Source: an uncultured Terrimonas sp. (lineage in GTDB: Bacteria; Bacteroidota; Bacteroidia; Chitinophagales; Chitinophagaceae). From it: a DNA stretch of 64,000 nt. The stretch lies in contig CAYVEI010000001.1 of NCBI GenBank assembly GCA_964450515.1, positions 12,885 to 76,884 on the forward strand, read 5' to 3'. The position numbers were made by a program, and so were the translations under genes. The notes under the pieces were generated by a model. That model saw only the letters and a program-made list of their open reading frames with translations, did not search any database and was not told the origin of the DNA. Positions 48,293-62,993 of this stretch are shown here, one piece after another. Position 1 is the stretch's first letter. The number at the start of each line of letters is the position of its first letter.

Positions 48293-49003
48293 TCACGGCA
48301 ACATTTCTACTACGATGCGGGTGTTGCTTAAATGAGCAATCCTTACAGGAATTAAATCGCCCGTTTTTACAGCGGCAGGCGCTTCGCCGGGCAACTGCAT
48401 TTTAGCCTGTATTTTATCATTAATGAAACTTACATGAGCACCATAGGGTGAAACTTTAGTTACAGTGGCTTCTATTGGCGTTTTATTTTTGAAATACTGT
48501 ACCGCTTTACGGAACTCCGGGATATAGTTGTGCGTGAAAAGCTCGGCAGACAGGCTGTTGGGTTTATCTATATGCAGCAGTTTAAACTCAACGGGTTCGT
48601 TAAAATTTTTTTCTGCGGGCGGAATTTCCCATGGGGATAATACCAGCGGGAAAAAAATATAACTACCGATTTCTTTTACAAAAAGGGCATCCTCCACAGG
48701 TTTCAAATAGCCGGTAAAGCGGTTATCTGTTGCTGCTTTGTGAATGAGCTGCTCTATTGCCGTGTTGTATAAAAATTTTAAATTAAAGGCTATTATCCTT
48801 TTACCCCTGTCGGCGCCTTTTATCTGGAAACGCACAACATCACCTATACGATACGGTTGCGGCTTTTTCGCTTTTTGCCCGGCCTTATCGTCTGTTCTGC
48901 AGGTGATCGTTTTCTTTTTATCCTTATGCATGTATTCAATGGAAACGTAGTGCTTTTCGTGATTAACGGAAGTAACCGTTCCATTCATTATCGCATTATC
49001 CAT
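48293..49003 (-). CDS. hypothetical protein with OB-fold-like (cold-shock/S1-like) termini
   Basis: The N-terminal GTVTSVNHEKHYVSIEY and the C-terminal ATVTKVSPYGAHVSF resemble OB-fold nucleic-acid-binding modules. Weak call. Confidence 0.4.
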   Translation of the reverse strand: MDNAIMNGTVTSVNHEKHYVSIEYMHKDKKKTITCRTDDKAGQKAKKPQPYRIGDVVRFQIKGADRGKRIIAFNLKFLYNTAIEQLIHKAATDNRFTGYLKPVEDALFVKEIGSYIFFPLVLSPWEIPPAEKNFNEPVEFKLLHIDKPNSLSAELFTHNYIPEFRKAVQYFKNKTPIEATVTKVSPYGAHVSFINDKIQAKMQLPGEAPAAVKTGDLIPVRIAHLSNTRIVVEMLP

Positions 49004-53756: not shown

Positions 53757-56192
53757 TTAGCGTTTCAGCCCTCCCAGCAATCCACCGATCAATTGTAATG
53801 CCTTTTCTATTACCTGCTCATCACCCACAGGTATTTTTAAATAGGTTTGCCCGGAAACCTTATCCTTTTCCGTTAGCTTGCTAACCAGTTGCTTTGTGCT
53901 TTCGGGGTTACTGAGCGATTTTGCCAGTTGTTCAAAAAAGGAAACGCCTGTTTGAATGATCTGGTCTTCGGCAGATAGGGTTTTTATCTTTTCCTGTTCC
54001 GGCTCACGCACGCTGTCTGTTATTTCACGGGCAAACAATTCCATTTGCGCGGGTGCGGTGGTCATTTCTTTCTCCGCATTTCTTTCCGCATTTTCTGACG
54101 CAGATTGTTCCGTTGCGCCGGGTATGCCGCCGGTAACCGATTCTACCGATTGCATAAACCGGTTGAACTTTTGTCCGCCCAGGAAAATCGTATTATCGCC
54201 ATCATCTAATATACCTGCGGCCACTCCTTTTTTAAATTTCAACACTTCCAGCATCCTTTCTTCAATGGTTCCTTTGGCCACGAGATTAATAACGCTTACG
54301 TTTCTCTTTTGCCCCAAACGATAGATGCGGCCAATGCGTTGCTCTAATATGGCCGGGTTCCAGGGAATATCCAGGTTGATTATACAGGAAGCGGCTTGCA
54401 GGTTTAGTCCTACCCCGCCGGCATCGGTTGAAAGAAACACCCTGCAATCAGGATCATTATTGAAATGTGTAAACAAAGCCTGCCTGTTTTTACCGGGTAC
54501 GCCCCCGTGAAGGTACTGATGCCTGATCCCTTTGTTCGTAAGCATTTGCGACACCAGCCTCGTCATCCGCTCCCATTGGCTGAATACTACTACTTTTTCT
54601 TCCTTCATGTCAATGATCTCATCTAATATATTTTCCAGCTCGTCTAACTTGGTTTGATAATTGGTTTCCTGGTCAATGATATAGGTGCTGTTGCAAACCA
54701 TACGCATCATGTTCAGGTTGTTCAGCAGCCGCTGCCTGTCTTCTTCCTTCAGGAATTTCATTCTTTTCCACTTATGCACCAATTTGGCCACGATCTCCCT
54801 GAACCCGTCATGCATTTGCATTTGCTCGTCAGTTATGGGGATAAGCAGGTTTTTATCCATGCGGGAAGGCAATTCTTTCAGCACTTCTTTTTTGGTGCGC
54901 CGCAGCATTACCTCTTTTAGCAGTCCGCCAATTTTATTAAGCTCTTTATATCCGGTAACTTTTCCGGTATCATCTGTTATCTGGTGCTGGTGTAAAAAAT
55001 GGTGAAGCGATCCCAGTAAATAAGGATTAACAATTTGCATCAGGGAATACAGCTCTTCAATATTATTTTCTACGGGCGTGCCGGTAAGCACCAAAGCATA
55101 AGGTGTTTTAATGCGTTTGATCCTGGCGGAGGTTTTTGCCCGCCAGTTCTTTATACGTTGCGCTTCATCCAATATCAGCATGTCGGCCTGCATTTCGTTC
55201 AGGTAGCCATAATCGTTAGCCGCCACATTATAGCTTACAATAAAATAATCGTACGCCTCGCTGGCGTATAGCTTCATCCGCGTGATAAGGTTCCCTTCTA
55301 CCACGCATATTTTTTTATTCTCTGTGAATCTTTCAATTTCGCTTTTCCATTGGTATTTCAATGATGTGGGGCAAACGATAATGGTTTTGGCGATCTTACA
55401 GTCGCGCCGCATTATTTCCGCGGCAGAGATGGCCTGCAGGGTTTTGCCCAAACCCATATCGTCGGCAAGTATACAACGGCCGGCGGCTACGCTGAATAAT
55501 ACACCCGTTTGCTGGTAAGGGAACAGCTTTACTTTACTTACACCATTCAATAATCGTATACCTTCTTTTTGTACCAGTTGCCTGCGTTGCATAAAGCCCC
55601 GTTCCTGCAGTATGAATTCCAGCGCGTCGTCATAACAGCGGAAGCCGTTGTTCAACTTTGAAGCTTTTACAAGAAACTGTTCGATATGCATTAACGCTTC
55701 CGGTTTCAACATACCTTTCTCATTAAAGTAGGGCCCGGCGAGCAGGGTAAATTTCTTCTTTTCCTCCGTACCTATCCGGAGCCTGACACTTCTTTGCCCG
55801 CGGTAATTAAGATATACTGAAGTATAGGCCGGAGCATACGCCTGCTGCAATGCCCGGCACAGAGCGGGCTTAGCATTTATTTTTAGCAGCACTGCTTCTA
55901 TATGCTTGCAGGTGCCCAACTGGTTGGTCTTAAAATCGGGACAGGTGCAAAAGTTCAGGCTGATGCCGGCGCTGCGCAAAGCTACCTTGTATGTGCTTTT
56001 AGATTGAGCGCTGTATACGTTGTAATCTCCGTACACCAGGCCTTCATCTAATTTTTTTATGGTAAATTTTTCTTCCTCTGCTATTTGTTTCCGCAAGGCA
56101 GCCTGCCATTCCTCATTGGTCAGGCTTTCGGGTTTACGGGTATGGGATATTCTTGCTTTTGCAGGTTTCTTTTTTGGGGCAGTTTTTCGCAT
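53757..56192 (-). CDS. SNF2-family helicase with an N-terminal SWIM zinc finger
   Basis: SWIM CTCPDFKTNQLGTCKHIEAV. SNF2 motif I LADDMGLGKT and motif II DEAQRIKN. Helicase-C QRIGRIYRLGQ. Confidence 0.85.
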   Translation of the reverse strand: MRKTAPKKKPAKARISHTRKPESLTNEEWQAALRKQIAEEEKFTIKKLDEGLVYGDYNVYSAQSKSTYKVALRSAGISLNFCTCPDFKTNQLGTCKHIEAVLLKINAKPALCRALQQAYAPAYTSVYLNYRGQRSVRLRIGTEEKKKFTLLAGPYFNEKGMLKPEALMHIEQFLVKASKLNNGFRCYDDALEFILQERGFMQRRQLVQKEGIRLLNGVSKVKLFPYQQTGVLFSVAAGRCILADDMGLGKTLQAISAAEIMRRDCKIAKTIIVCPTSLKYQWKSEIERFTENKKICVVEGNLITRMKLYASEAYDYFIVSYNVAANDYGYLNEMQADMLILDEAQRIKNWRAKTSARIKRIKTPYALVLTGTPVENNIEELYSLMQIVNPYLLGSLHHFLHQHQITDDTGKVTGYKELNKIGGLLKEVMLRRTKKEVLKELPSRMDKNLLIPITDEQMQMHDGFREIVAKLVHKWKRMKFLKEEDRQRLLNNLNMMRMVCNSTYIIDQETNYQTKLDELENILDEIIDMKEEKVVVFSQWERMTRLVSQMLTNKGIRHQYLHGGVPGKNRQALFTHFNNDPDCRVFLSTDAGGVGLNLQAASCIINLDIPWNPAILEQRIGRIYRLGQKRNVSVINLVAKGTIEERMLEVLKFKKGVAAGILDDGDNTIFLGGQKFNRFMQSVESVTGGIPGATEQSASENAERNAEKEMTTAPAQMELFAREITDSVREPEQEKIKTLSAEDQIIQTGVSFFEQLAKSLSNPESTKQLVSKLTEKDKVSGQTYLKIPVGDEQVIEKALQLIGGLLGGLKR

Positions 56193-56775: not shown

Positions 56776-56808
56776 ACCCGGTCGCAGCAAACGACCGGGT
56801 TTTTTGTT
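56776..56808 (+). terminator. rho-independent terminator
   Basis: 9-bp stem ACCCGGTCG / CGACCGGGT with a 7-nt loop, followed by TTTTTGTTG. Confidence 0.65.
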
Positions 56809-56863
56809 GCTGCATATAAAAATAGCGGGTATAGGATCATATCCTTTCTCCATAAACAACAAT

Positions 56864-56936
56864 GATCTGTTCGTCTAATGGTTCAGGACACAAGGTTTTC
56901 ATTCTTGAAATACGGGTTCAACTCCCGTACAGATTA
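56864..56936 (+). tRNA. tRNA-Glu (anticodon TTC), AT-rich, G1-U72 wobble
   Basis: Hand-folded cloverleaf. Acceptor GATCTGT/ACAGATT, D arm GTCT-AATGGTTCA-GGAC, anticodon arm CAAGG-TTTTCAT-TCTTG, T arm ACGGG-TTCAACT-CCCGT. No encoded CCA. Confidence 0.8.
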
Positions 56937-56939
56937 CAA

Positions 56940-57011
56940 GGTTCGTTGGTGTAACGGCTAACATCACAGATTGTCGATCTGTTGCTATGGGTTCGATTCC
57001 CGTACGAACCG
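56940..57011 (+). tRNA. tRNA-Asp (anticodon GTC)
   Basis: Acceptor GGTTCGT/ACGAACC, D arm GTGT-AACGGCTA-ACAT, anticodon arm ACAGA-TTGTCGA-TCTGT, T arm ATGGG-TTCGATT-CCCGT. It starts 3 nt after the previous tRNA. Confidence 0.8.
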
Positions 57012-57019
57012 CTGAAGCT

Positions 57020-57092
57020 TATTGAGTGGTGTAATGGTTCAGCATGTCAGTTTTTGACACTGGCGGTTTTGGTTCGAATCCAAACTCAATAA
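57020..57092 (+). tRNA. tRNA-Gln (anticodon TTG), U1-A72
   Basis: Acceptor TATTGAG/CTCAATA, anticodon arm TCAGT-TTTTGAC-ACTGG, T arm TTTGG-TTCGAAT-CCAAA. Confidence 0.8.
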
Positions 57093-57097
57093 CGCAT

Positions 57098-57171
57098 GTT
57101 GACTTCAGCTTATGCGCTAAAGCGCCACACTGTGAATGTGGAGAATTAGCGTTGGAATCTCGAAGTCAACC
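57098..57171 (+). tRNA. tRNA-His-like (anticodon GTG) with a degenerate T arm; possibly a pseudo-tRNA
   Basis: 8-bp-capable acceptor GTTGACTT/AAGTCAAC, a possible G-1:C73 pair as in tRNA-His. D arm GCTT-ATGCGCTA-AAGC and a perfect anticodon arm CCACA-CTGTGAA-TGTGG. The T loop is TTGGAAT (G instead of C56) and the T stem TAGCG/CTCGA has 2 mismatches. Confidence 0.55.
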
Positions 57172-57197
57172 AATACTGCCTGGTGTAAAGGCAATAG

Positions 57198-57271
57198 TGG
57201 CCCGTAGCTCAATTGGCAAGAGTATCCGGCTTTTAACCGGAGGGTTCAGGGTTCGAATCCCTGCGGACCAA
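57198..57271 (+). tRNA. tRNA-Lys (anticodon TTT), U1-A72 with a C4-A69 mismatch
   Basis: Acceptor TGGCCCG/CGGACCA, D arm GCTC-AATTGGCAA-GAGT, anticodon arm TCCGG-CTTTTAA-CCGGA, T arm CAGGG-TTCGAAT-CCCTG. Confidence 0.75.
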
Positions 57272-57275
57272 CGAT

Positions 57276-57347
57276 GGACGAATAGCTCCAATGGCAGAGC
57301 ATTGGTTTGAAGCACCAACTGTGCTGGTTCGAATCCGGCTTCGTCCA
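57276..57347 (+). tRNA. tRNA-Phe (anticodon GAA)
   Basis: Acceptor GGACGAA/TTCGTCC, D arm GCTC-CAATGGCA-GAGC, anticodon arm TTGGT-TTGAAGC-ACCAA, T arm GCTGG-TTCGAAT-CCGGC. Confidence 0.85.
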
Positions 57348-57384
57348 CAGATAAGAAGATTTTAAATACCTGTTAAGGAAGAAA

Positions 57385-57870
57385 ATGGAACAACAGCAAA
57401 AATGGAGGAAGTTATCCGGCGAAAGCGTTCAACAGCCGATTGAAGATGAGATAAGAACTGTGATCATAAGAGAAAAAGAGATGGGACATGCTTTAAAAAT
57501 CTGCATTGGCACCGACAGCCAGGTAAAGGGACGGGAAACTGAATTTGCGACTGTTATTGTGTTCATCCGGAAAGGGAAAGGAGGGTTCATGTATATACAC
57601 AATGAGATCACTACACAAAAGATGAGCATCAAACAACGGATGCTGACTGAGGTAGGTAAGAGTATTGAAGTGGCTTATGCCCTGTGCAATATTTTTTCGC
57701 GGTACAGTGTGGATATGGAAGTGCATGCCGACATCAACACTAACCCCAGCTTTAAAAGTAATGCTGCTTTGAAGGAAGCAATGGGTTATATTATGGGAAT
57801 AGGATTTGCCTTTAAAGCAAAACCGGAGGCCTTTGCAAGCTCAAGCTGCGCGAATAAGGTGGTACAGTAG
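57385..57870 (+). CDS. YkuK/DUF458-family RNase H-fold protein
   Basis: 161 aa. The signature IGTDSQ is followed by a TxFATVIV strand (CIGTDSQVKGRETEFATVIVFIRKGKGG). The C-terminal ...ASSSCANKVVQ resembles the YkuK C-terminus as I remember it. It starts 37 nt after tRNA-Phe. Confidence 0.65.
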   Translation: MEQQQKWRKLSGESVQQPIEDEIRTVIIREKEMGHALKICIGTDSQVKGRETEFATVIVFIRKGKGGFMYIHNEITTQKMSIKQRMLTEVGKSIEVAYALCNIFSRYSVDMEVHADINTNPSFKSNAALKEAMGYIMGIGFAFKAKPEAFASSSCANKVVQ

Positions 57871-57875
57871 CAATT

Positions 57876-57908
57876 ATGGTTGCCAATCTTCCAAAGGTTG
57901 GCAACCAT
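57876..57908. repeat. palindromic hairpin element, copy 1 (ATGGTTGCCAA-tcttccaaagg-TTGGCAACCAT)
   Basis: 11-bp perfect stem, directly after the YkuK stop, with flanks ATT...TTT shared with copy 2. Confidence 0.8.
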
Positions 57909-58021
57909 TTCCAAATAGCAGAAAGTAAGCCATCAGGATTCGAAGGTAGCGTGAACAAAAAGCGTTCTTTAAAATATAATAAGTTCCTTCTTAATGGGAA
58001 GGCTTAAAAAGCTTGCTTAAC

Positions 58022-58175
58022 GGCAAGATGGGGAACCTGCGTGTTAGCAGCAAACCGGATGTGTGTTTTAAAAGCACTATAGTGCGGCGGTAGTAACCTG
58101 CCGTATGCTGTTGCAATAACATGTATTTCCCTCTATAACCTGTGGGTCAGGGGTTCGAGTCCCTTTCCTGCCTCA
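58022..58175 (+). ncRNA. long tRNA-like element X: canonical T arm and 3' acceptor strand, with a candidate 5' acceptor partner about 140 nt upstream
   Basis: T arm AGGGG-TTCGAGT-CCCTT (58149-58165). The 3' strand TCCTGCC (58166-58172) is followed by TCA. The best 5' partner is GGCAAGA (58022-28; 6 of 7 pairs). The interior has several short hairpins, e.g. CGGCGG-tagtaac-CCTGCCG at 58085-58103. The fold is not resolved by hand. Confidence 0.4.
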
Positions 58176-58238
58176 GGCGGGATAGCTCAGCGGTTAGAGC
58201 AACAGGCAATTGCGGGTTCGAATCCCGCTCCCGCCTCA
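58176..58238 (+). ncRNA. tRNA-like element Y lacking the anticodon arm (acceptor + D arm + T arm only)
   Basis: Acceptor GGCGGGA/TCCCGCC is perfect. D arm GCTC-AGCGGTTA-GAGC and T arm GCGGG-TTCGAAT-CCCGC. Only 11 nt (AACAGGCAATT, 58201-58211) join the D and T arms where a tRNA has about 22-23 nt. A TCA tail follows. Confidence 0.6.
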
Positions 58239-58302
58239 GGCGGGATAGTTCAATGGTAGAACACAACACTTCGGATGTTGAGTAAAGAAGTACACTGCTT
58301 CT
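58239..58302 (+). ncRNA. tRNA-like element Z: 5' acceptor strand, D arm, anticodon-like arm and a non-canonical T-like hairpin, but no 3' acceptor strand
   Basis: GGCGGGA, then TA, then GTTC-AATGGTA-GAAC, then CAACA-CTTCGGA-TGTTG (nominal anticodon TCG; the loop can close as a C(UUCG)G tetraloop). Next comes AGAAG-TACACTG-CTTCT, followed by CAAAAAA instead of TCCCGCC. Confidence 0.45.
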
Positions 58303-58604
58303 CAAAAAATGGTGACGAATTAAAGTGAGGGTTATTTATCGGCCGGACTGCTTAAGTAAATATGCCGTAAGCATATATGCGACAGCAGTACGGCAACTGA
58401 TCTATCGCCAGTGTGCTATGCCAGTTGTAATGAGCGACAAAACACTTTTTTATCTGGGTTCTTTGCCTGCGGGCAGTGAAAGATAAAAAACTGCCTTGTC
58501 TAACATCACAGCGCTTAATGCCCGCTATACAAAGTGATAAATAATCCTGACTTTAATATTAAGCAAGGAAGATTTTAATATAGTAACAGTTAAAAGAGAA
58601 GAAG

Positions 58605-59705
58605 ATGAAAAATGTAAAAGTAAACGCCTACCAGGTTGGATTGGTTTTTAAAAATGGCGTGTATCAGCGGATGCTGAACGAAGGAAGCTACTGGTTCTGG
58701 AGCAATGAAACCGTGCAGTTATTTGATATAACCAAGCCATTCAATGCACCAGTGGAGCTGAATTTATTATTAAAGGATGCTGCACTTGCTGAGGCATTAC
58801 TTGTACTGGACGTAAAAGACAATGAAATTGCTTTACAATATAAGAACGGTTTGCTGGAAGCAGTATTCGGTGCAGGTCGTTATGCCTTTTGGAAAGGCGC
58901 TGTTGAATACAAATTCATAAACGCAGATATTGGAAAGATTGAGATCACTGAACCTGTAGAACGAACGGTATTGTTACATCGCCTGGTTGCCCCATTCGTT
59001 CGTAGCGTAAGTGTGGAAAGCTTTGAAAAAGCGGTATTGTTTATTGACGGAAAATTTATGCAGGTTTTGCAAAGTGGCGTATACTATTGGTGGAAGAATG
59101 CAATTGCCGTACATGTTGGTAAAATAGATACCCGTCAACAGCAACTGGAGATCAATGGCCAGGAAATTCTGACCAAAGATAAAGCGGCATTGCGTATCAA
59201 CGCATGGGCGCAATACCAGGTAACTGATATTGAAAAAGCCCTGCTGCAAAACAAAGAATACGACAGGCAATTGTATGTGGCATTTCAACTGGCATTGCGG
59301 GAATATGTAGCCGGCTTTGGATTTGATGAATTGCTGGAGAAAAAAGAAGCCATTACTCCTTTCATTTTGCAAAGTGTACAGAAAAACGCTGAAGCATTGG
59401 GTATAGTGGTGAATGGTTTCGGCATCCGTGATATCATATTGCCGGGCGATGTAAAGGAGATCATGAACCAGGTATTGATCGCTGAAAAGAAAGCGCAGGC
59501 AAACACCATCATGCGCAGGGAAGAAACTGCCAGCACCCGAAGCTTGCTGAACACTGCCAGGCTGATGGAAGAAAACGCAATGTTGTGGAAACTGAAGGAA
59601 ATGGAATACGTGGAAAAGATCGCAGAAAAGATTAGCAACATTAGTGTAAGTGGCAACGGTGTATTGATTGAGCAGTTGAAGGAGATTTTTGTGCCGAAGA
59701 AATAG
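58605..59705 (+). CDS. SPFH/Band-7 (slipin-like) domain protein without a TM segment
   Basis: The C-terminal half is typical SPFH (IRDIILPGDVKEIMNQVLIAEKKAQANTIMRREETAS...). The N-terminal half has three related segments (VGLVFKNGVYQRMLNEGSYWFW / IALQYKNGLLEAVFGAGRYAFW / AVLFIDGKFMQVLQSGVYYWW). I see no hydrophobic anchor. Confidence 0.75.
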   Translation: MKNVKVNAYQVGLVFKNGVYQRMLNEGSYWFWSNETVQLFDITKPFNAPVELNLLLKDAALAEALLVLDVKDNEIALQYKNGLLEAVFGAGRYAFWKGAVEYKFINADIGKIEITEPVERTVLLHRLVAPFVRSVSVESFEKAVLFIDGKFMQVLQSGVYYWWKNAIAVHVGKIDTRQQQLEINGQEILTKDKAALRINAWAQYQVTDIEKALLQNKEYDRQLYVAFQLALREYVAGFGFDELLEKKEAITPFILQSVQKNAEALGIVVNGFGIRDIILPGDVKEIMNQVLIAEKKAQANTIMRREETASTRSLLNTARLMEENAMLWKLKEMEYVEKIAEKISNISVSGNGVLIEQLKEIFVPKK

Positions 59706-59710
59706 TGATT

Positions 59711-59743
59711 ATGGTTGCCGGCCTTTGGAAGGTTGGCAGCCAT
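59711..59743. repeat. palindromic hairpin element, copy 2 (ATGGTTGCC-ggcctttggaaggtt-GGCAGCCAT)
   Basis: It matches the reverse complement of copy 1 at all but 4 positions. It lies directly after the SPFH stop. Confidence 0.8.
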
Positions 59744-59876
59744 TTATAAAAGAGTGGAAAACGGTTTTAGCCTGGCTTTTATCCATATTACAATGTCTGT
59801 TACGTTACACTCTTCATTGTTTAATAACTTTATTGAAAAACTTAGAGAGCTTAGAAACTAAAAAAATAATCATAAA

Positions 59877-60596
59877 ATGCAAAGTAGAACGATAAGTATC
59901 AAAGCAGAAACCTTTAATTATCCTACAAAAGAAGAACGGTTGAATGCAAATGAAGATTTTCCAAAACTGAAAGTCTTTGATTTTGAAGAAAAAAATGCAA
60001 TAGACCTTCATCTAAATCATAATATCGATTTAGATAGATCTTCATCATATCATAATTTGTACTGGTGGAATAATTGTTTATCTAACAGAATAGGAAAGTT
60101 ACATGAAACCTTTGTCTATGTGCATACGCATTATCATAGAGGCTTTTTAGAAGATATTACAACATGTTCTGAAATAGAAATCGCTAATAAGTTACAATTT
60201 GAATATTATGCTGAATTATTTTACTATTTCTATGTTTCGACAAGAGATATTGTTTATCAAATAGTAAACCTTTATTGCAATTGTAAAATTTTGGATCGCC
60301 AAGTTTCCTTCACTGAATTAATAAATAAGCTAAACGACTTCCCTGAAATTAAGAAATTATTGCGGGACTTTAATAATACAATAAAATCTTCTTCTGATAT
60401 AAGAAATGGTTTTGCTCATAGATTTACTCCAACGATCAAAGACTATAGAACTGATACTTCAAAAATTAATGAACGAATTTCATTGAGCTTTAAAGAAGGG
60501 GAGCATCTTTCATCTGAAGAGATCGTTACAAATATTAATTTTTCTCTAAAAGAACTTGAAATAGCAATAAGCAGCTTAAAAGAAAATATGAAATAG
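59877..60596 (+). CDS. predicted HEPN-domain protein (candidate RNase), AT-rich
   Basis: 239 aa, largely helical by composition. An R-x4-H motif RNGFAH at R176-H181 (nt 60402-60419) with the usual Asn after Arg. Two 60-nt lines counted at 25% (60001-60060) and 32% GC (60061-60120), against 65% for a line inside rtcB (61081-61140). The family cannot be assigned by eye. Confidence 0.5.
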   Translation: MQSRTISIKAETFNYPTKEERLNANEDFPKLKVFDFEEKNAIDLHLNHNIDLDRSSSYHNLYWWNNCLSNRIGKLHETFVYVHTHYHRGFLEDITTCSEIEIANKLQFEYYAELFYYFYVSTRDIVYQIVNLYCNCKILDRQVSFTELINKLNDFPEIKKLLRDFNNTIKSSSDIRNGFAHRFTPTIKDYRTDTSKINERISLSFKEGEHLSSEEIVTNINFSLKELEIAISSLKENMK

Positions 60597-60727
60597 CAAA
60601 ACATGAAAAGCGAGCCGAAACCCGAACGGAGCGTCGCAACATCAGCTCAACCGAAGTTACGGAGCTGGAATCAAAAACCTCTGTGTTCTTCCGTGTCTCC
60701 CTGCCTCCATGGTTCAAAACAAAAACA

Positions 60728-62194
60728 ATGAGCAAGTTAAAAATAACAGGAAAAGAATTAAGAGCCATCGGCTACCCCGAAAGCCGGGTGATAAGCGTGG
60801 CAATAAATGTGATGCAAAAAAATTATAAGCATCATAATAAGGAGAAAGTATTGGAACTATTAAAAAAAATACTGGAAGCGCCGGCTGCATATAAAGACGA
60901 TGGGGTACTGGCATTGATTGCAGAAAAATTGCTGCATACGCTTCACAAGGATAAGGGTGACCATACAGGAGGGGTACAGGTATCATTGCATAGTTCGGGT
61001 ATTCCATTTAATGTATTTGGCAGCGAGCATATTGAAGAAGGCGCCATGCACCAGATGTATACCGCGGCTAAGCTGCCCGTGGCCGTTGCGGGGGCTTTAA
61101 TGCCCGATGCCCACAGCGGTTACGGCTTGCCGATAGGTGGTGTGCTGGCAACACACAACGCGGTAATACCTTACGGCGTTGGCGTGGATATTGGCTGCCG
61201 CATGTGTTTGAGCGTGTTTGATATGGATCCGAAGGAGTTGCTGAAAAAGGAAAATTATTTTATAAGGGAATTAAATGAAGCCACCCTGTTTGGGAGCGGA
61301 AAGCAATTTGATCATGCTGCTGATCACGAAGTAATGGATCGCCCGGAATTCGGAGCGCTGCCCTTACTGAAAAACCTGCACGGACGGGCATGGAAACAAT
61401 TGGGATCATCCGGCTCCGGCAATCATTTTGCAGAGTTTGGCGTGGTGGAGATCAGCCAAAAAGATGAAATATTGGGCATTGACGCAGGGACCTATATAGG
61501 TTTGCTTTCGCATTCCGGCTCAAGGGCATTGGGTGCGGCTATTGCTAATCATTATACAAAGATCGCTAAACAAAAAAGACGCCTGCCGGGTGAAGCCGCT
61601 AACCTTGCCTGGCTGAACTTAGATGAAGAAGCCGGTATGGAATACTGGATATCCATGAACCTGGCAGGCGATTATGCTTCTGCCTGCCACCATATTATAC
61701 ATGCAAAGCTTGCAGGGCAACTGGGAACAAAAGCCATGAAGATGGTGGAGAACCACCACAATTTTGCCTGGAAGGAAGTGTGGGAAGGAAAGGAAGTGAT
61801 CGTTCATCGCAAAGGCGCTACACCTGCTGGCAAAAATGTATTGGGCATTATTCCCGGCAGCATGACCGCTAATGGATTTATAGTAAAAGGAAAAGGAGAG
61901 GAAGCCTCTGTGAATTCCGCATCGCATGGAGCAGGCAGGCAAATGAGCCGCAGCAAAGCGTTACAATCTGTTACCGAAAGTGCATTAAAGCAGGAGCTAA
62001 AAAAACACGGTGTAAAATTGATCGGCGGCGGACTGGATGAAGCGCCTTTTGCCTACAAGGATATTCATACTGTGATGCAAAGTCAACAGCAATTGGTAGA
62101 GGTGGTGGGAAAATTCGCACCAAAAATTGTGAAAATGGACGGCGCAAAGCATAAAATGTGGGGAAAGAAAAGAGATGAACCAACAGGTGAGTAG
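60728..62194 (+). CDS. rtcB: RNA 3'-phosphate/2',3'-cyclic phosphate ligase RtcB, with an N-terminal extension of roughly 95 aa
   Basis: RtcB metal and GMP-site motifs MPDAHSGYG, VDIGCRM, GSGNHFAEF, HSGSRALG and ENHHNFAW. I prefer the ATG at 60728 (MSKLKITGKEL...). Confidence 0.9.
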   Translation: MSKLKITGKELRAIGYPESRVISVAINVMQKNYKHHNKEKVLELLKKILEAPAAYKDDGVLALIAEKLLHTLHKDKGDHTGGVQVSLHSSGIPFNVFGSEHIEEGAMHQMYTAAKLPVAVAGALMPDAHSGYGLPIGGVLATHNAVIPYGVGVDIGCRMCLSVFDMDPKELLKKENYFIRELNEATLFGSGKQFDHAADHEVMDRPEFGALPLLKNLHGRAWKQLGSSGSGNHFAEFGVVEISQKDEILGIDAGTYIGLLSHSGSRALGAAIANHYTKIAKQKRRLPGEAANLAWLNLDEEAGMEYWISMNLAGDYASACHHIIHAKLAGQLGTKAMKMVENHHNFAWKEVWEGKEVIVHRKGATPAGKNVLGIIPGSMTANGFIVKGKGEEASVNSASHGAGRQMSRSKALQSVTESALKQELKKHGVKLIGGGLDEAPFAYKDIHTVMQSQQQLVEVVGKFAPKIVKMDGAKHKMWGKKRDEPTGE

Positions 62195-62294
62195 CTCAAA
62201 TACGGTCGGTACGCATAGCGTTAGACTGTATTTGTTTTTTAAATGGAATAACAATGCCATCTCAAATAAAACTAAATTACAGTCTCAACCAGGT

Positions 62295-62993
62295 ATGATG
62301 CGGATACTTTTAATTTTAATGGCATGCTTGTGGTATAATAACAACTGCGTGGCGCAGGCACAAAAAAGACACGTTGTAAAAGCCGGCGAATCGCCCGATG
62401 AAGTAATACCCGATGAAGCAAAATATGTACTGCCCGCATTTACAGCAGGAACGGCATTTTTAAGATCAGGCGCATCCGTAAAACAACGTTTCAATTACAA
62501 TTGCCTTTTAGATGAAATGCAGTTTTTAAATACCGGCGGCGACACCCTGGCCATTGCAGATCCCGCACTGATTAAATACATCAGCATTGACAGCCTCGTG
62601 TTTTATTACGATAAAGGATACCTGCAGCAGAAGGTACAGGTTGGCGCTTACATGCTCGCTGTAAAACAGCAAATGATCTATATCCCCGATAAAGTGGGCA
62701 CGGCCTATGGCGGCTCTTCGGGCTCTTCGGCAGTAACCACTTATTCAAGCATATACTCCAGCGACAAAGTACACCGTTTGAAAGTAGACAGGGACGTACT
62801 TTTTGAAACGGTAACCAACTGGTTTATCGGCAATTCGTACAACCGTTTTGAAAAAGCAGATAAGAAAGGGTTTTATAATATTTTCCCTTCAAAAAGAGAC
62901 GCCATAAGAAAATACATTGCAAAAAACAATACAGATTTTAATAAGGAAGCCGACCTTGAACAACTGCTGCGGTTTTGTACGGAAAAACAATAA
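62295..62993 (+). CDS. hypothetical secreted protein
   Basis: I prefer the start at MMRILLILMACLWYNNNCVAQAQ (62295). I recognise no motif. Confidence 0.45.
   Translation: MMRILLILMACLWYNNNCVAQAQKRHVVKAGESPDEVIPDEAKYVLPAFTAGTAFLRSGASVKQRFNYNCLLDEMQFLNTGGDTLAIADPALIKYISIDSLVFYYDKGYLQQKVQVGAYMLAVKQQMIYIPDKVGTAYGGSSGSSAVTTYSSIYSSDKVHRLKVDRDVLFETVTNWFIGNSYNRFEKADKKGFYNIFPSKRDAIRKYIAKNNTDFNKEADLEQLLRFCTEKQ

Follow-up and report, generated by a model that had tools for sequence, protein, structure and literature searches.

What kind of system is encoded where a string of tRNA genes, a putative nuclease gene, a tRNA-like RNA and an RNA ligase gene follow one another on one strand of a bacterial chromosome? 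The question is raised by an island at positions 56864-62194 of a 64,000-nt stretch of contig CAYVEI010000001.1 (the window). On the + strand, the island holds, in this order, tRNA genes, an open reading frame (ORF) of the YkuK family, a gap of 734 nt, a gene for an SPFH/Band-7 protein lacking transmembrane segments, a HEPN_Cthe2314-family gene and the gene for the RNA ligase RtcB. An initial annotation, made from the sequence, had read it as a candidate conflict system of RNA damage, decoy and repair. Placements by ARAGORN, Rfam and Pfam bore out the co-orientation of the whole island, and profile searches matched the four ORFs to RNaseH_like/YkuK, Band_7, HEPN_Cthe2314 and RtcB, each above the curated Pfam cutoff, in agreement with the four protein assignments made initially.

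The answer favoured here, with a probability of roughly 60%, is that the locus is an RtcB RNA-repair (tRNA-healing) system of the Band-7/SPFH class in its Chitinophagaceae form. It would consist of a core of SPFH protein and an RNA presenting tRNA shapes, of a spare-tRNA array together with YkuK, and of a variable slot that in the window is taken by a HEPN RNase.

Conserved Linkage and Invariant Core

The gene cluster is conserved in Chitinophagaceae, a family of soil Bacteroidota. The neighbourhood was surveyed in 80 Chitinophagaceae genome loci, of which 56 had enough flanking sequence for neighbour counts. The RNA and SPFH occurred together in 78 of the 80. Among the flanked loci, an upstream tRNA array was present in 44, YkuK in 43 and RtcB within 7 kb downstream in 39; 28 loci carried all three and five carried none of them. 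The same gene order was found in dozens of genomes, which is beyond chance, and the linkage of array, YkuK, RNA, SPFH and RtcB, on which the initial annotation had made its proposal depend, is conserved across related genomes. In one locus (L081), RtcB was displaced by insertions and lies 8.4 kb off, and the RNA-SPFH pair of Terrimonas occurs by itself. The RNA together with SPFH is therefore the invariant unit, around which the other elements are frequent yet separable additions.

The Variable Slot between SPFH and RtcB

In about 17 loci, SPFH and RtcB are direct neighbours and the slot between them is empty. In others, it was found to contain paired RlaP nucleotidyltransferases, DinB_2, an Rv2179c-like 3'-5' exoribonuclease or an AAA ATPase, and HEPN proteins of other families were identified there as well (LA2681, AbiV, a weak AbiU2 match and unassigned Rx4H proteins); at least four HEPN families were found in this slot. 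In the window, it holds a HEPN gene whose R-x4-H motif, already noted in the initial annotation, is intact, with R176, N177, H181 and R182 invariant in 15 homologs (16 homologs were found in a large protein database). The protein is predicted from its sequence to be an RNase leaving a 2',3'-cyclic phosphate; HEPN cuts leave ends that can be joined by RtcB.

HEPN had initially been regarded as a fixed component of the system, a view that could not be maintained. A tblastn search with the window HEPN gave no match in any of the 80 genome loci. The only locus with the same family in the slot is a metagenomic contig (L087), where a 47%-identical HEPN stands in the order YkuK, AAA, RNA, Band_7, HEPN, RtcB; other relatives were found away from RtcB (L090/L091), one of them among small unrelated genes. 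The GC content of the ORF is 28-30% compared with 40-50% in its neighbours, and the low GC marks the gene as recent cargo. As the slot is variable, being either empty or filled by unrelated genes, and HEPN is unmatched in the 80 loci, HEPN is optional swap-in cargo and not part of the core, and the slot is a hot spot attracting RNases and RNA-end-processing enzymes.

These results bear on another explanation, according to which the island is a dedicated toxin-healer pair, that is, a conflict system centred on HEPN as the system's own effector, with RtcB as antidote and the SPFH-RNA pair as decoy or sensor. The intact motif, the RtcB-joinable ends known from HEPN cleavage, the 47%-identical protein in L087 and the LA2681, AbiV and weak AbiU2 occupants of the slot in other genomes all speak for it. 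It is nevertheless unlikely, as SPFH lies directly beside RtcB wherever the slot is empty, RlaP, DinB or Ro60 fill many slots instead, the window HEPN is missing from the 80 loci, its relatives also occur apart from RtcB and its base composition is that of a recent arrival.

The ligase itself matches RtcB structures in the PDB at ~1e-27. The motifs DIGC, GSGNH, HSGSR, NHHN and HGAG are present, which presumably provide the metal-binding Cys and His residues and the GMP-accepting His, as mapped from the P. horikoshii and E. coli enzymes. Its ORF opens at GTG 60683, but the true start is probably ATG 60728. An N-terminal extension of ~100 amino acids (residues 1-100, window 60728-61030) lies outside the Pfam and NCBIfam RtcB models, and in L057 a separate ORF of 74 amino acids resembles this extension.

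No rtcA, rtcR, archease, TROVE, integrase or transposase domains were detected among the ORFs between 41 and 64 kb, and the absence of these genes, as described initially, was upheld for that range. For Ro/TROVE, this is true in the window, whereas in two relatives (L066 and L080) the same slot carries a Ro60 gene with TROVE and von Willebrand factor A (vWA) domains, followed by YrlA-like RNAs. The island therefore belongs to the Rsr/Y-RNA/RtcB sphere and does not stand outside it. The YrlA-like RNAs lie between the Ro60 gene and RtcB (L080 10269-10378 and 10703-10814; L066 10668-10743), and a YrlA-like RNA of L080 gives a full-length match to the YrlA model at 49.5 bits. In these two loci, YrlA-like RNAs share one operon with the SPFH-associated RNA, so that both types of ribonucleoprotein (RNP) coexist.

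Structure of the Conserved RNA

Within the gap between YkuK and SPFH (57871-58604), only 58007-58343 is conserved, as seen by BLAST of the whole gap against the 80 related loci. In every case, the conserved stretch precedes SPFH on the same strand at a distance of 250-600 nt. It encodes a structured RNA of ~310 nt (58007-58315) with a 5' domain, two permuted modules, an anticodon-like arm and a 3' pseudoknot. Rfam contains no family that covers it; the search returned tRNA matches (58176-58236 with 50.8 bits and without anticodon arm; 58246-58302, partial) and sub-threshold matches to YrlA (RF02553; 58141-58204 and 58210-58262 with 34.9 and 39.1 bits against a gathering score of 69), and an existing Rfam family was rejected as the identity of the RNA. 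The YrlA matches are confined to model positions 23-85 and 29-81, and the full model including the Ro-binding stem is not matched.

Both modules follow the YrlA core order of T-arm, closed acceptor hairpin and D-arm given in the structure line of that model. Module 1 is composed of an outer stem (58140-43/58202-05), a T-arm (58149-65), the closed acceptor hairpin H1 (58166-82) and a D-arm (58185-58200); module 2 has a T-arm (58212-28), the closed acceptor hairpin H2 (58229-45), a D-arm (58248-62) and the anticodon-like arm (58264-80). The T-loops keep UUCGAxU and the D-loops keep GG, and therefore two tRNA elbows are preserved. In 60 of the 62 sequences, the anticodon-like loop is 7 nt long; U33 is found in 50/60 and R37 in 59/60, A38 is kept, and the triplet takes 23 different values.

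Initially, three anticodon-less cloverleaf modules had been proposed at 58022-58302. The tRNA-like pieces are indeed located there, but the three-cloverleaf fold had to be given up in favour of a single RNA. The window alone permits both cloverleaf and hairpin pairings because its acceptor strands are near-identical repeats (GGCGGGA twice; TCCTGCC and TCCCGCC). In an alignment-free test of the 62 sequences, the 7 nt that follow T-arm 1 paired with the 7 nt preceding D-arm B at a mean of 6.2/7, and the mean was 6.3/7 for the corresponding stretches behind T-arm 2 and ahead of D-arm C, whereas the cloverleaf pairing reached 4.2/7, equal to the control. The cloverleaf acceptor alone was paired in 61% compared with 58% for shuffles in the same sequences. 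A cloverleaf for 58176-58236 (RF00005) was thus rejected, its own 5'/3' acceptor pairing being at chance level and its anticodon arm absent, and a model of three equal tRNA-like modules was replaced by two permuted modules with a 5' domain and a pseudoknot.

The full structure was supported on a MAFFT alignment (A1), in which 93.2% of cells were paired compared with 41-51% when the partners were slid, with compensatory changes at 41 of 50 pairs. The covariation score was 0.547 versus 0.19 for shuffles, and none of 500 shuffles reached it; covariation of the region, expected if the initial annotation was right in seeing an RNA here, is strong. H1 was paired in 90.9% and covaried at 7/7 pairs, the 5' domain has 36 pairs with compensatory changes in 29 (RNAalifold, 62 sequences), and the pseudoknot covaried at 4/4 pairs and was 77% paired on the MAFFT alignment, the compensatory pairs being CACC/GGUG, CAUC/GAUG, CAGC/GCUG and CGCC/GGCG. 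An alignment made with a covariance model (A3) was excluded from the covariation analysis, as it was contaminated with array tRNAs.

Upstream of SPFH, a covariance model of the 3' two-thirds of the RNA (R1) detects it in 78 of the 80 genome loci, with scores of 95-190 bits, as well as in L082 and L087. Ordinary tandem tRNAs of the arrays receive 20-70 bits from the same model. This suggests that the RNA is descended from closely packed tRNA genes, the 3' acceptor strand of one having switched its pairing to the 5' strand of its downstream neighbour. The best sigma-70-like promoter of the region (57952-57980, TGAACA-17-TATAAT, 10/12) is located ~25 nt before the point at which conservation of the RNA begins; the sigma-70 consensus may not fit Bacteroidota.

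The place of the RNA would also be compatible with a cis-acting leader, a tRNA-shaped sensor in the 5' untranslated region of an SPFH-RtcB operon that controls expression when cut or bound, instead of a trans-acting RNP subunit. In line with this, it is always encoded 250-300 nt ahead of SPFH in the same orientation, no + strand terminator-like site was seen between the two, the promoter-like site lies just upstream and an RtcR-type regulator was not found nearby (ORFs 41-64 kb). Such a leader is distinctly improbable, however, since the sequence between pseudoknot and SPFH start is unconserved past ~58343, alternative terminator/antiterminator pairing was not seen, the RNA is similar in its YrlA-type modules to one known from a stable RNP and the 3' pseudoknot looks end-protecting.

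The tRNA Array and YkuK

Six tRNA genes had been assigned to 56864-57347 in the initial annotation. ARAGORN finds five of them, and the sixth, detected by Rfam, folds without D and T arms; there are therefore five good tRNAs and one aberrant element. The acceptor of the latter is of the His type (G-1:C73) and its anticodon hairpin carries GUG. The element takes the place held by tRNA-His in related arrays; its minimum-free-energy fold is a rod without D and T arms (fold z = -4.87). Spacers in the window array are 2-26 nt long, and none of the six tRNAs encodes CCA. In relatives, the arrays comprise 2-14 co-oriented tRNA genes with a median spacer of 7 nt.

Array tRNAs with the same anticodon have pairwise identities of 0.68-0.84 between Chitinophagaceae genomes. 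Compared with canonical-looking copies outside the arrays in related loci, array Asn tRNAs are 38-59% and array Glu tRNAs 61-79% identical, and the first base is not G in 44% of array tRNAs. Phe, Lys, Asn, Gln, Arg-ACG, His, Asp and Glu predominate; tRNAs of split codon boxes account for 343 of 422 array tRNAs, and Thr for none of the 422. The dominant species are presumably tRNAs with Q34, xm5s2U34 or I34, the targets of PrrC, colicins E5 and D and gamma-toxin. This composition is consistent with the initial idea that the array serves as a replacement pool.

The YkuK gene starts 36 nt beyond the last tRNA of the array on the same strand. The family has been described as an uncharacterised RNase H-like clade (PMC3985635), and a solved structure of a YkuK homolog was not found. 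Homologs occur in 74 phage records, chiefly from large tRNA-rich myoviruses. In Vibrio phage KVP40 (L085, 4457-6468), YkuK adjoins a DUF2828/DUF7788 'RNA-binding protein', the pair lying ~5 kb from a tRNA cluster, and the C-terminus of this protein has a vWA metal-ion-dependent adhesion site motif common to Ro60 (pairwise E = 2e-4). In Pseudomonas phage Astolliot (L086, 5965-6465 and 10820-12208), YkuK is 1.2 kb from tRNA genes with a DUF2828 protein nearby. Because of this independent recurrence in phages, YkuK is tied to tRNA clusters and Ro-like proteins, a link that was not found in the literature searched.

In 38 loci, an AAA ATPase of 358 amino acids (PF00004, with weak STAND-like matches) stands beside YkuK; it is absent from the window. 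It is placed either between YkuK and the RNA or between array and YkuK (e.g., L087 2557-3633, L017 2175-3308), and its pairing with an SPFH protein recalls HflK/C-FtsH.

A functionless juxtaposition of an ordinary or selfish spreading tRNA operon, a hitch-hiking YkuK and an 'RNA' decayed from three tandem tRNAs would agree with the R1 scores of array tandems (consistent with an origin from a tRNA-tRNA junction), with the array/YkuK and RtcB missing beside RNA-SPFH in some close relatives and with the horizontal spread of tRNA L-arrays (PMC8421152), yet it is very improbable, as decay would not yield the compensatory changes that keep H1, H2, 5' domain and pseudoknot in 62 sequences, the order array-YkuK-RNA-SPFH-RtcB is found in 28/56 loci despite fast tRNA divergence, and phage YkuK is likewise tied to tRNA clusters and a Ro-like vWA protein.

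The SPFH Protein

SPFH is 73-99% identical across Chitinophagaceae, with Agriterribacter and Terrimonas closest. It has no N-terminal membrane anchor, the maximum Kyte-Doolittle value over 19 residues being 1.48 and lying in a charged segment. The C-terminal 230 residues match stomatin, QmcA and HflK in the PDB, which are ring- or cage-forming proteins. In an AlphaFold2 model (predicted local distance difference test score, pLDDT, 67), three five-stranded beta-repeats at the N-terminus are followed by the SPFH core and a long C-terminal helix. A Foldseek search with this model returned stomatin and HflK/C on top, with 220-256 aligned columns; major vault protein (MVP) alone aligned over >440 columns including the N-terminal beta-repeats (E 1e-9 to 1e-7, low TM-scores). 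The MVP-like layout of the model is suggestive only, and the similarity may simply be that of a general SPFH architecture.

A further and doubtful proposal takes this layout of beta-repeats, SPFH 'shoulder' and long helix literally. The SPFH protein would then form a soluble cage with the double tRNA-mimic RNA inside it or presented by it, to which RtcB would be recruited, joined in relatives by Ro60/TROVE, the AAA ATPase and RlaP. In such a bacterial vault-like RNP compartment for tRNA repair, array and YkuK would be dedicated to its supply, and through swap-in HEPN RNases the cell's cleavage of its own tRNAs would become reversible. If this were true, it would suggest an origin of eukaryotic vaults, with MVP, a TROVE protein and a small RNA, from such RNA-repair particles.

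A phage origin of the SPFH-RNA core was rejected, as single-sequence patterns found no SPFH relative in IMG/VR and one weak YkuK locus. An S1 RNA-binding-domain protein of 236 amino acids encoded in the window (48293-49003, - strand) is 56% identical to the product of the gene directly downstream of SPFH in L004 and L005 (8258-8953 in L004). It may be a further RNA-binding partner that was relocated 9.6 kb away in this genome.

Proposed Mechanism and Points Against It

Every biochemical step of the RNA-repair system favoured here is inferred from what was observed, namely the anatomy, the linkage, the RNA structure and the variability of the slot. The core would be an RNP of the soluble, oligomer-forming SPFH protein and the ~310-nt RNA always encoded directly upstream of it, which would present two tRNA elbows (T-loop/D-loop) and one anticodon-like loop. 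Metal-independent RNases, either foreign toxins or the cell's own HEPN/Abi effectors, would cut anticodon loops and produce tRNA halves with 2',3'-cyclic-phosphate and 5'-OH ends. The SPFH-RNA particle might serve as a scaffold or cofactor, or its tRNA-like shape might make it a decoy or sensor; it would gather tRNA-handling enzymes, and RtcB would reseal the tRNA halves.

The putatively supernumerary, fast-evolving array might be the source of replacement tRNAs. It is dominated by species with a hypermodified wobble position of the kind attacked by anticodon nucleases (Lys, Gln, Glu; Asn, Asp, His; Arg-ACG; also Phe), and YkuK may help to process or clear its tightly packed transcripts. The slot between SPFH and RtcB would serve as a swap-in site for accessory end-processing genes or RNases. 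In the window, it appears to have received a horizontally acquired HEPN RNase that possibly makes cuts of a kind that RtcB can repair; its role would be either that of an effector, in reversible growth arrest or defence, or that of a nuclease that trims ends.

Several points weigh against this proposal. In the closest genera (L004-L009, L082), the RNA-SPFH pair occurs without array, YkuK or nearby RtcB, and because of this the parts are separable. The roles of all components are deduced from sequence, and SPFH-RNA binding is predicted from the adjacency of the two genes. Within the 64 kb of host genome covered, the array tRNAs are only putatively supernumerary. None of the four island proteins (YkuK, SPFH, HEPN, RtcB) matches a defence model of PADLOC 2.0. 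The arrangement of rtcR in Citrobacter, divergent from a slipin and a nucleotidyltransferase gene, speaks for the proposal, as does the SPFH gene paFlo8 inside the rtc locus of P. aeruginosa (PMC13086221). However, no tRNA-like match was obtained upstream of the Citrobacter slipin, and deletion of paFlo8 gave no phenotype in standard assays.

The locus family is compact and highly conserved, and its RNA, SPFH, RtcB, tRNA array and nuclease can be separated genetically, which makes it a favourable setting for asking which substrates bacterial RtcB repairs and which roles Y-RNA-like tRNA mimics have. The ~310-nt RNA without Rfam family is suited to structural work and illustrates a possible path from tandem tRNAs to permuted tRNA mimics. 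SPFH proteins are regarded as membrane scaffolds, and a soluble member tied to an RNA would be an extension of the family. Array composition and HEPN hot spot connect RNA repair with toxin and phage conflicts, and together suggest that tRNA cleavage, replacement and religation are organised as a single unit.

Other Features of the Window

The features of the island and its borders are compiled in Table 1.

Table 1. Coordinates of the elements identified in and next to the island.
Feature	Position in window	Strand	Evidence and remarks
G+C-rich hairpin with T-run	56776-56810	.	Terminator scan, sequence
tRNA-Glu(TTC)	56864-56937	+	ARAGORN; Rfam 59.5 bits; AU-rich stems, CCA not encoded
tRNA-Asp(GTC)	56940-57012	+	ARAGORN, Rfam
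tRNA-Gln(TTG)	57020-57093	+	ARAGORN, Rfam
Aberrant tRNA-His(GTG)-like element	57098-57171	+	Rfam tRNA 36.8 bits (gathering score 29); missed by ARAGORN
tRNA-Lys(TTT)	57198-57272	+	ARAGORN, Rfam; first pair U1-A72
tRNA-Phe(GAA)	57276-57348	+	ARAGORN, Rfam; usual final array member in relatives
YkuK/DUF458 RNase H-like ORF	57385-57870	+	Pfam PF04308, 8e-37, 126.8 bits (cutoff 25)
Palindromic hairpin	57873-57910	.	3' of YkuK stop; read from sequence
5' domain of the RNA	58007-58139	+	P1 hairpin ~58012-58027, nested long-range helices, conserved AGUGCAG...CUGUAUGCU hairpin
Module 1, permuted YrlA-type tRNA mimic	58140-58205	+	Rfam YrlA model positions 23-85
Module 2, permuted YrlA-type tRNA mimic	58212-58280	+	Rfam YrlA model positions 29-81; pair counts
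3' hairpin and H-type pseudoknot	58286-58314	+	Stem 58286-90/58298-302; loop 58293-96 pairs with 58311-14 across A-run
SPFH/Band-7 (slipin) protein without transmembrane segment	58605-59705	+	Pfam Band_7 1e-31, 110.7 bits; 366 amino acids
HEPN_Cthe2314-family protein	59877-60596	+	Pfam PF18730, 7.7e-12, 46 bits (cutoff 27.1); motif R176-N177-x3-H181
RtcB RNA ligase	60728-62194	+	Pfam PF01139, 4.5e-79, 267 bits (cutoff 27); 488 amino acids from ATG 60728

The G+C-rich hairpin just before the tRNA array is likely a terminator that closes the upstream unit. The palindrome after YkuK (~35 nt, ATGGTTGCCAA...TTGGCAACCAT) was also seen after the SPFH stop in L002, L003, L007, L015, L045 and L055, where it occurs in either orientation, and may be a terminator module or a REP-like (repetitive extragenic palindromic) element. 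At the other border, an ORF of 272 amino acids (62175-62993, + strand) shares 20 nt with the end of the RtcB gene. Its N-terminus resembles a signal peptide, it has no Pfam match and no counterpart in related loci, and it is probably unrelated to the island.

A mobile-element origin was rejected, as the 41-64 kb range contained neither integrase nor transposase and the genes around the island are of ordinary metabolic kinds. These include sucrose-6-phosphate phosphatase, an OPT transporter, hydrolases, ABC-F and an aldo-keto reductase, the exception being an SNF2/SWIM helicase (53757-56192, - strand) with strong scores against the PADLOC models DpdE and ZorD. The helicase is the upstream neighbour also in the closest full relative (L002), and no partner defence genes were seen adjoining it. 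A known anti-phage defence system was rejected as the identity of the island on the PADLOC result given above.

In related loci, additional proteins were observed near the core. A WYL domain was identified by Pfam near RNA-SPFH in L093 (3010-4593) and L082 (3226-4245), and upstream ORFs in L003, L057, L066 and L067 are WYL-like by sequence inspection alone; WYL proteins could be candidate ligand-sensing regulators that replace RtcR. A protein family of 245-260 amino acids was located in the cassette, either before the RNA or in the slot, in L013, L044, L049, L050, L058, L064, L069, L070 and L077, and its member in L070 (6301-7044) has no Pfam match.

Comparison with Known Systems

Conflicts between anticodon nucleases and repair, such as PrrC/RloC versus T4 Pnkp-Rnl1 or phage tRNAs versus tRNA-cutting defences, resemble the proposed system in that HEPN-type tRNA cleavage is countered by ligation and replacement tRNAs. 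In the window, by contrast, every part is encoded on a single strand of the chromosome, RtcB stands in place of an ATP-dependent ligase, and the nuclease is optional.

The tRNA L-arrays are co-oriented, tightly spaced and divergent tRNA genes associated with rtcB. They spread horizontally in several phyla including Bacteroidetes, a cyanobacterial L-array (Anabaena) is co-regulated with rtcB under translational stress, and they have been proposed to act as a spare pool or sponge under RNase stress (PMC8421152). The arrays described here share the co-orientation, the close spacing and the divergence from housekeeping copies. They differ in being shorter (6 in the window, 2-14 in relatives) and biased towards split codon boxes, and in being physically joined to YkuK, the SPFH RNP and RtcB.

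Eukaryotic vaults consist of an MVP cage, TEP1 with a TROVE module and vault RNA (10.1101/872010). The combination of a soluble SPFH-type shell protein with a small structured RNA is common to both, and a TROVE protein is also present in some relatives of the window locus. However, the window SPFH has 366 amino acids compared with ~860 in MVP, and its layout is that of a model of moderate confidence (pLDDT 67).

In the Salmonella rsr-yrlBA-rtcBA locus, a permuted tRNA-like module (T-arm, closed acceptor hairpin, D-arm) is likewise encoded beside RtcB, and the likeness extends further in L080 and L066, where the slot carries a TROVE + vWA Ro60 and YrlA-like RNAs. In contrast, the window is devoid of Ro60, RtcR and RtcA, and its RNA lacks a Ro-binding stem and, unlike YrlA, is built of two tandem modules with extra domains.

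Beyond Chitinophagaceae, a locus in the Firmicute Subdoligranulum contains a WYL regulator, a weak R1 match (19.9 bits; T-arm, hairpin, D-arm), an SPFH protein 39.5% identical to that of the window, RtcB and RlaP. This locus and the rtc-linked SPFH genes of Citrobacter and P. aeruginosa fit the system predicted in 2016 that is considered next.

The prediction of Burroughs and Aravind (NAR 2016) that had been named in the initial annotation does exist. The preprint 10.1101/312249 quotes it as an RNA-repair system of Band-7, b7a-tRNA and RtcB, describes the b7a-tRNA as 'strongly resembling an authentic tRNA' and speaks of it as lacking experimental validation. A later characterisation of this system was not found in the literature searched. 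Set against the description of b7a-tRNA given there, the window has a tRNA-like RNA adjoining an RtcB-linked Band-7 gene, as predicted; RtcB, Band-7 and tRNA-like RNA adjoin in both, and RlaP and Ro60/YrlA are interchangeable partners. As far as the same description allows, the differences are that the RNA here has ~310 nt, two permuted modules, a 5' domain and a pseudoknot, and that the system includes a tRNA array and YkuK as well as, in relatives, an AAA ATPase. Because Band-7 with a tRNA-like RNA and RtcB was predicted earlier, the system is not categorically new in kind. New, as far as checked, are the architecture of the RNA and the union of the system with tRNA arrays, YkuK and an AAA ATPase, seen in dozens of genomes, together with the HEPN hot spot, the parallel in phages, where YkuK is tied to tRNA clusters and a Ro-like protein, and the MVP-like layout suggested by the SPFH model.

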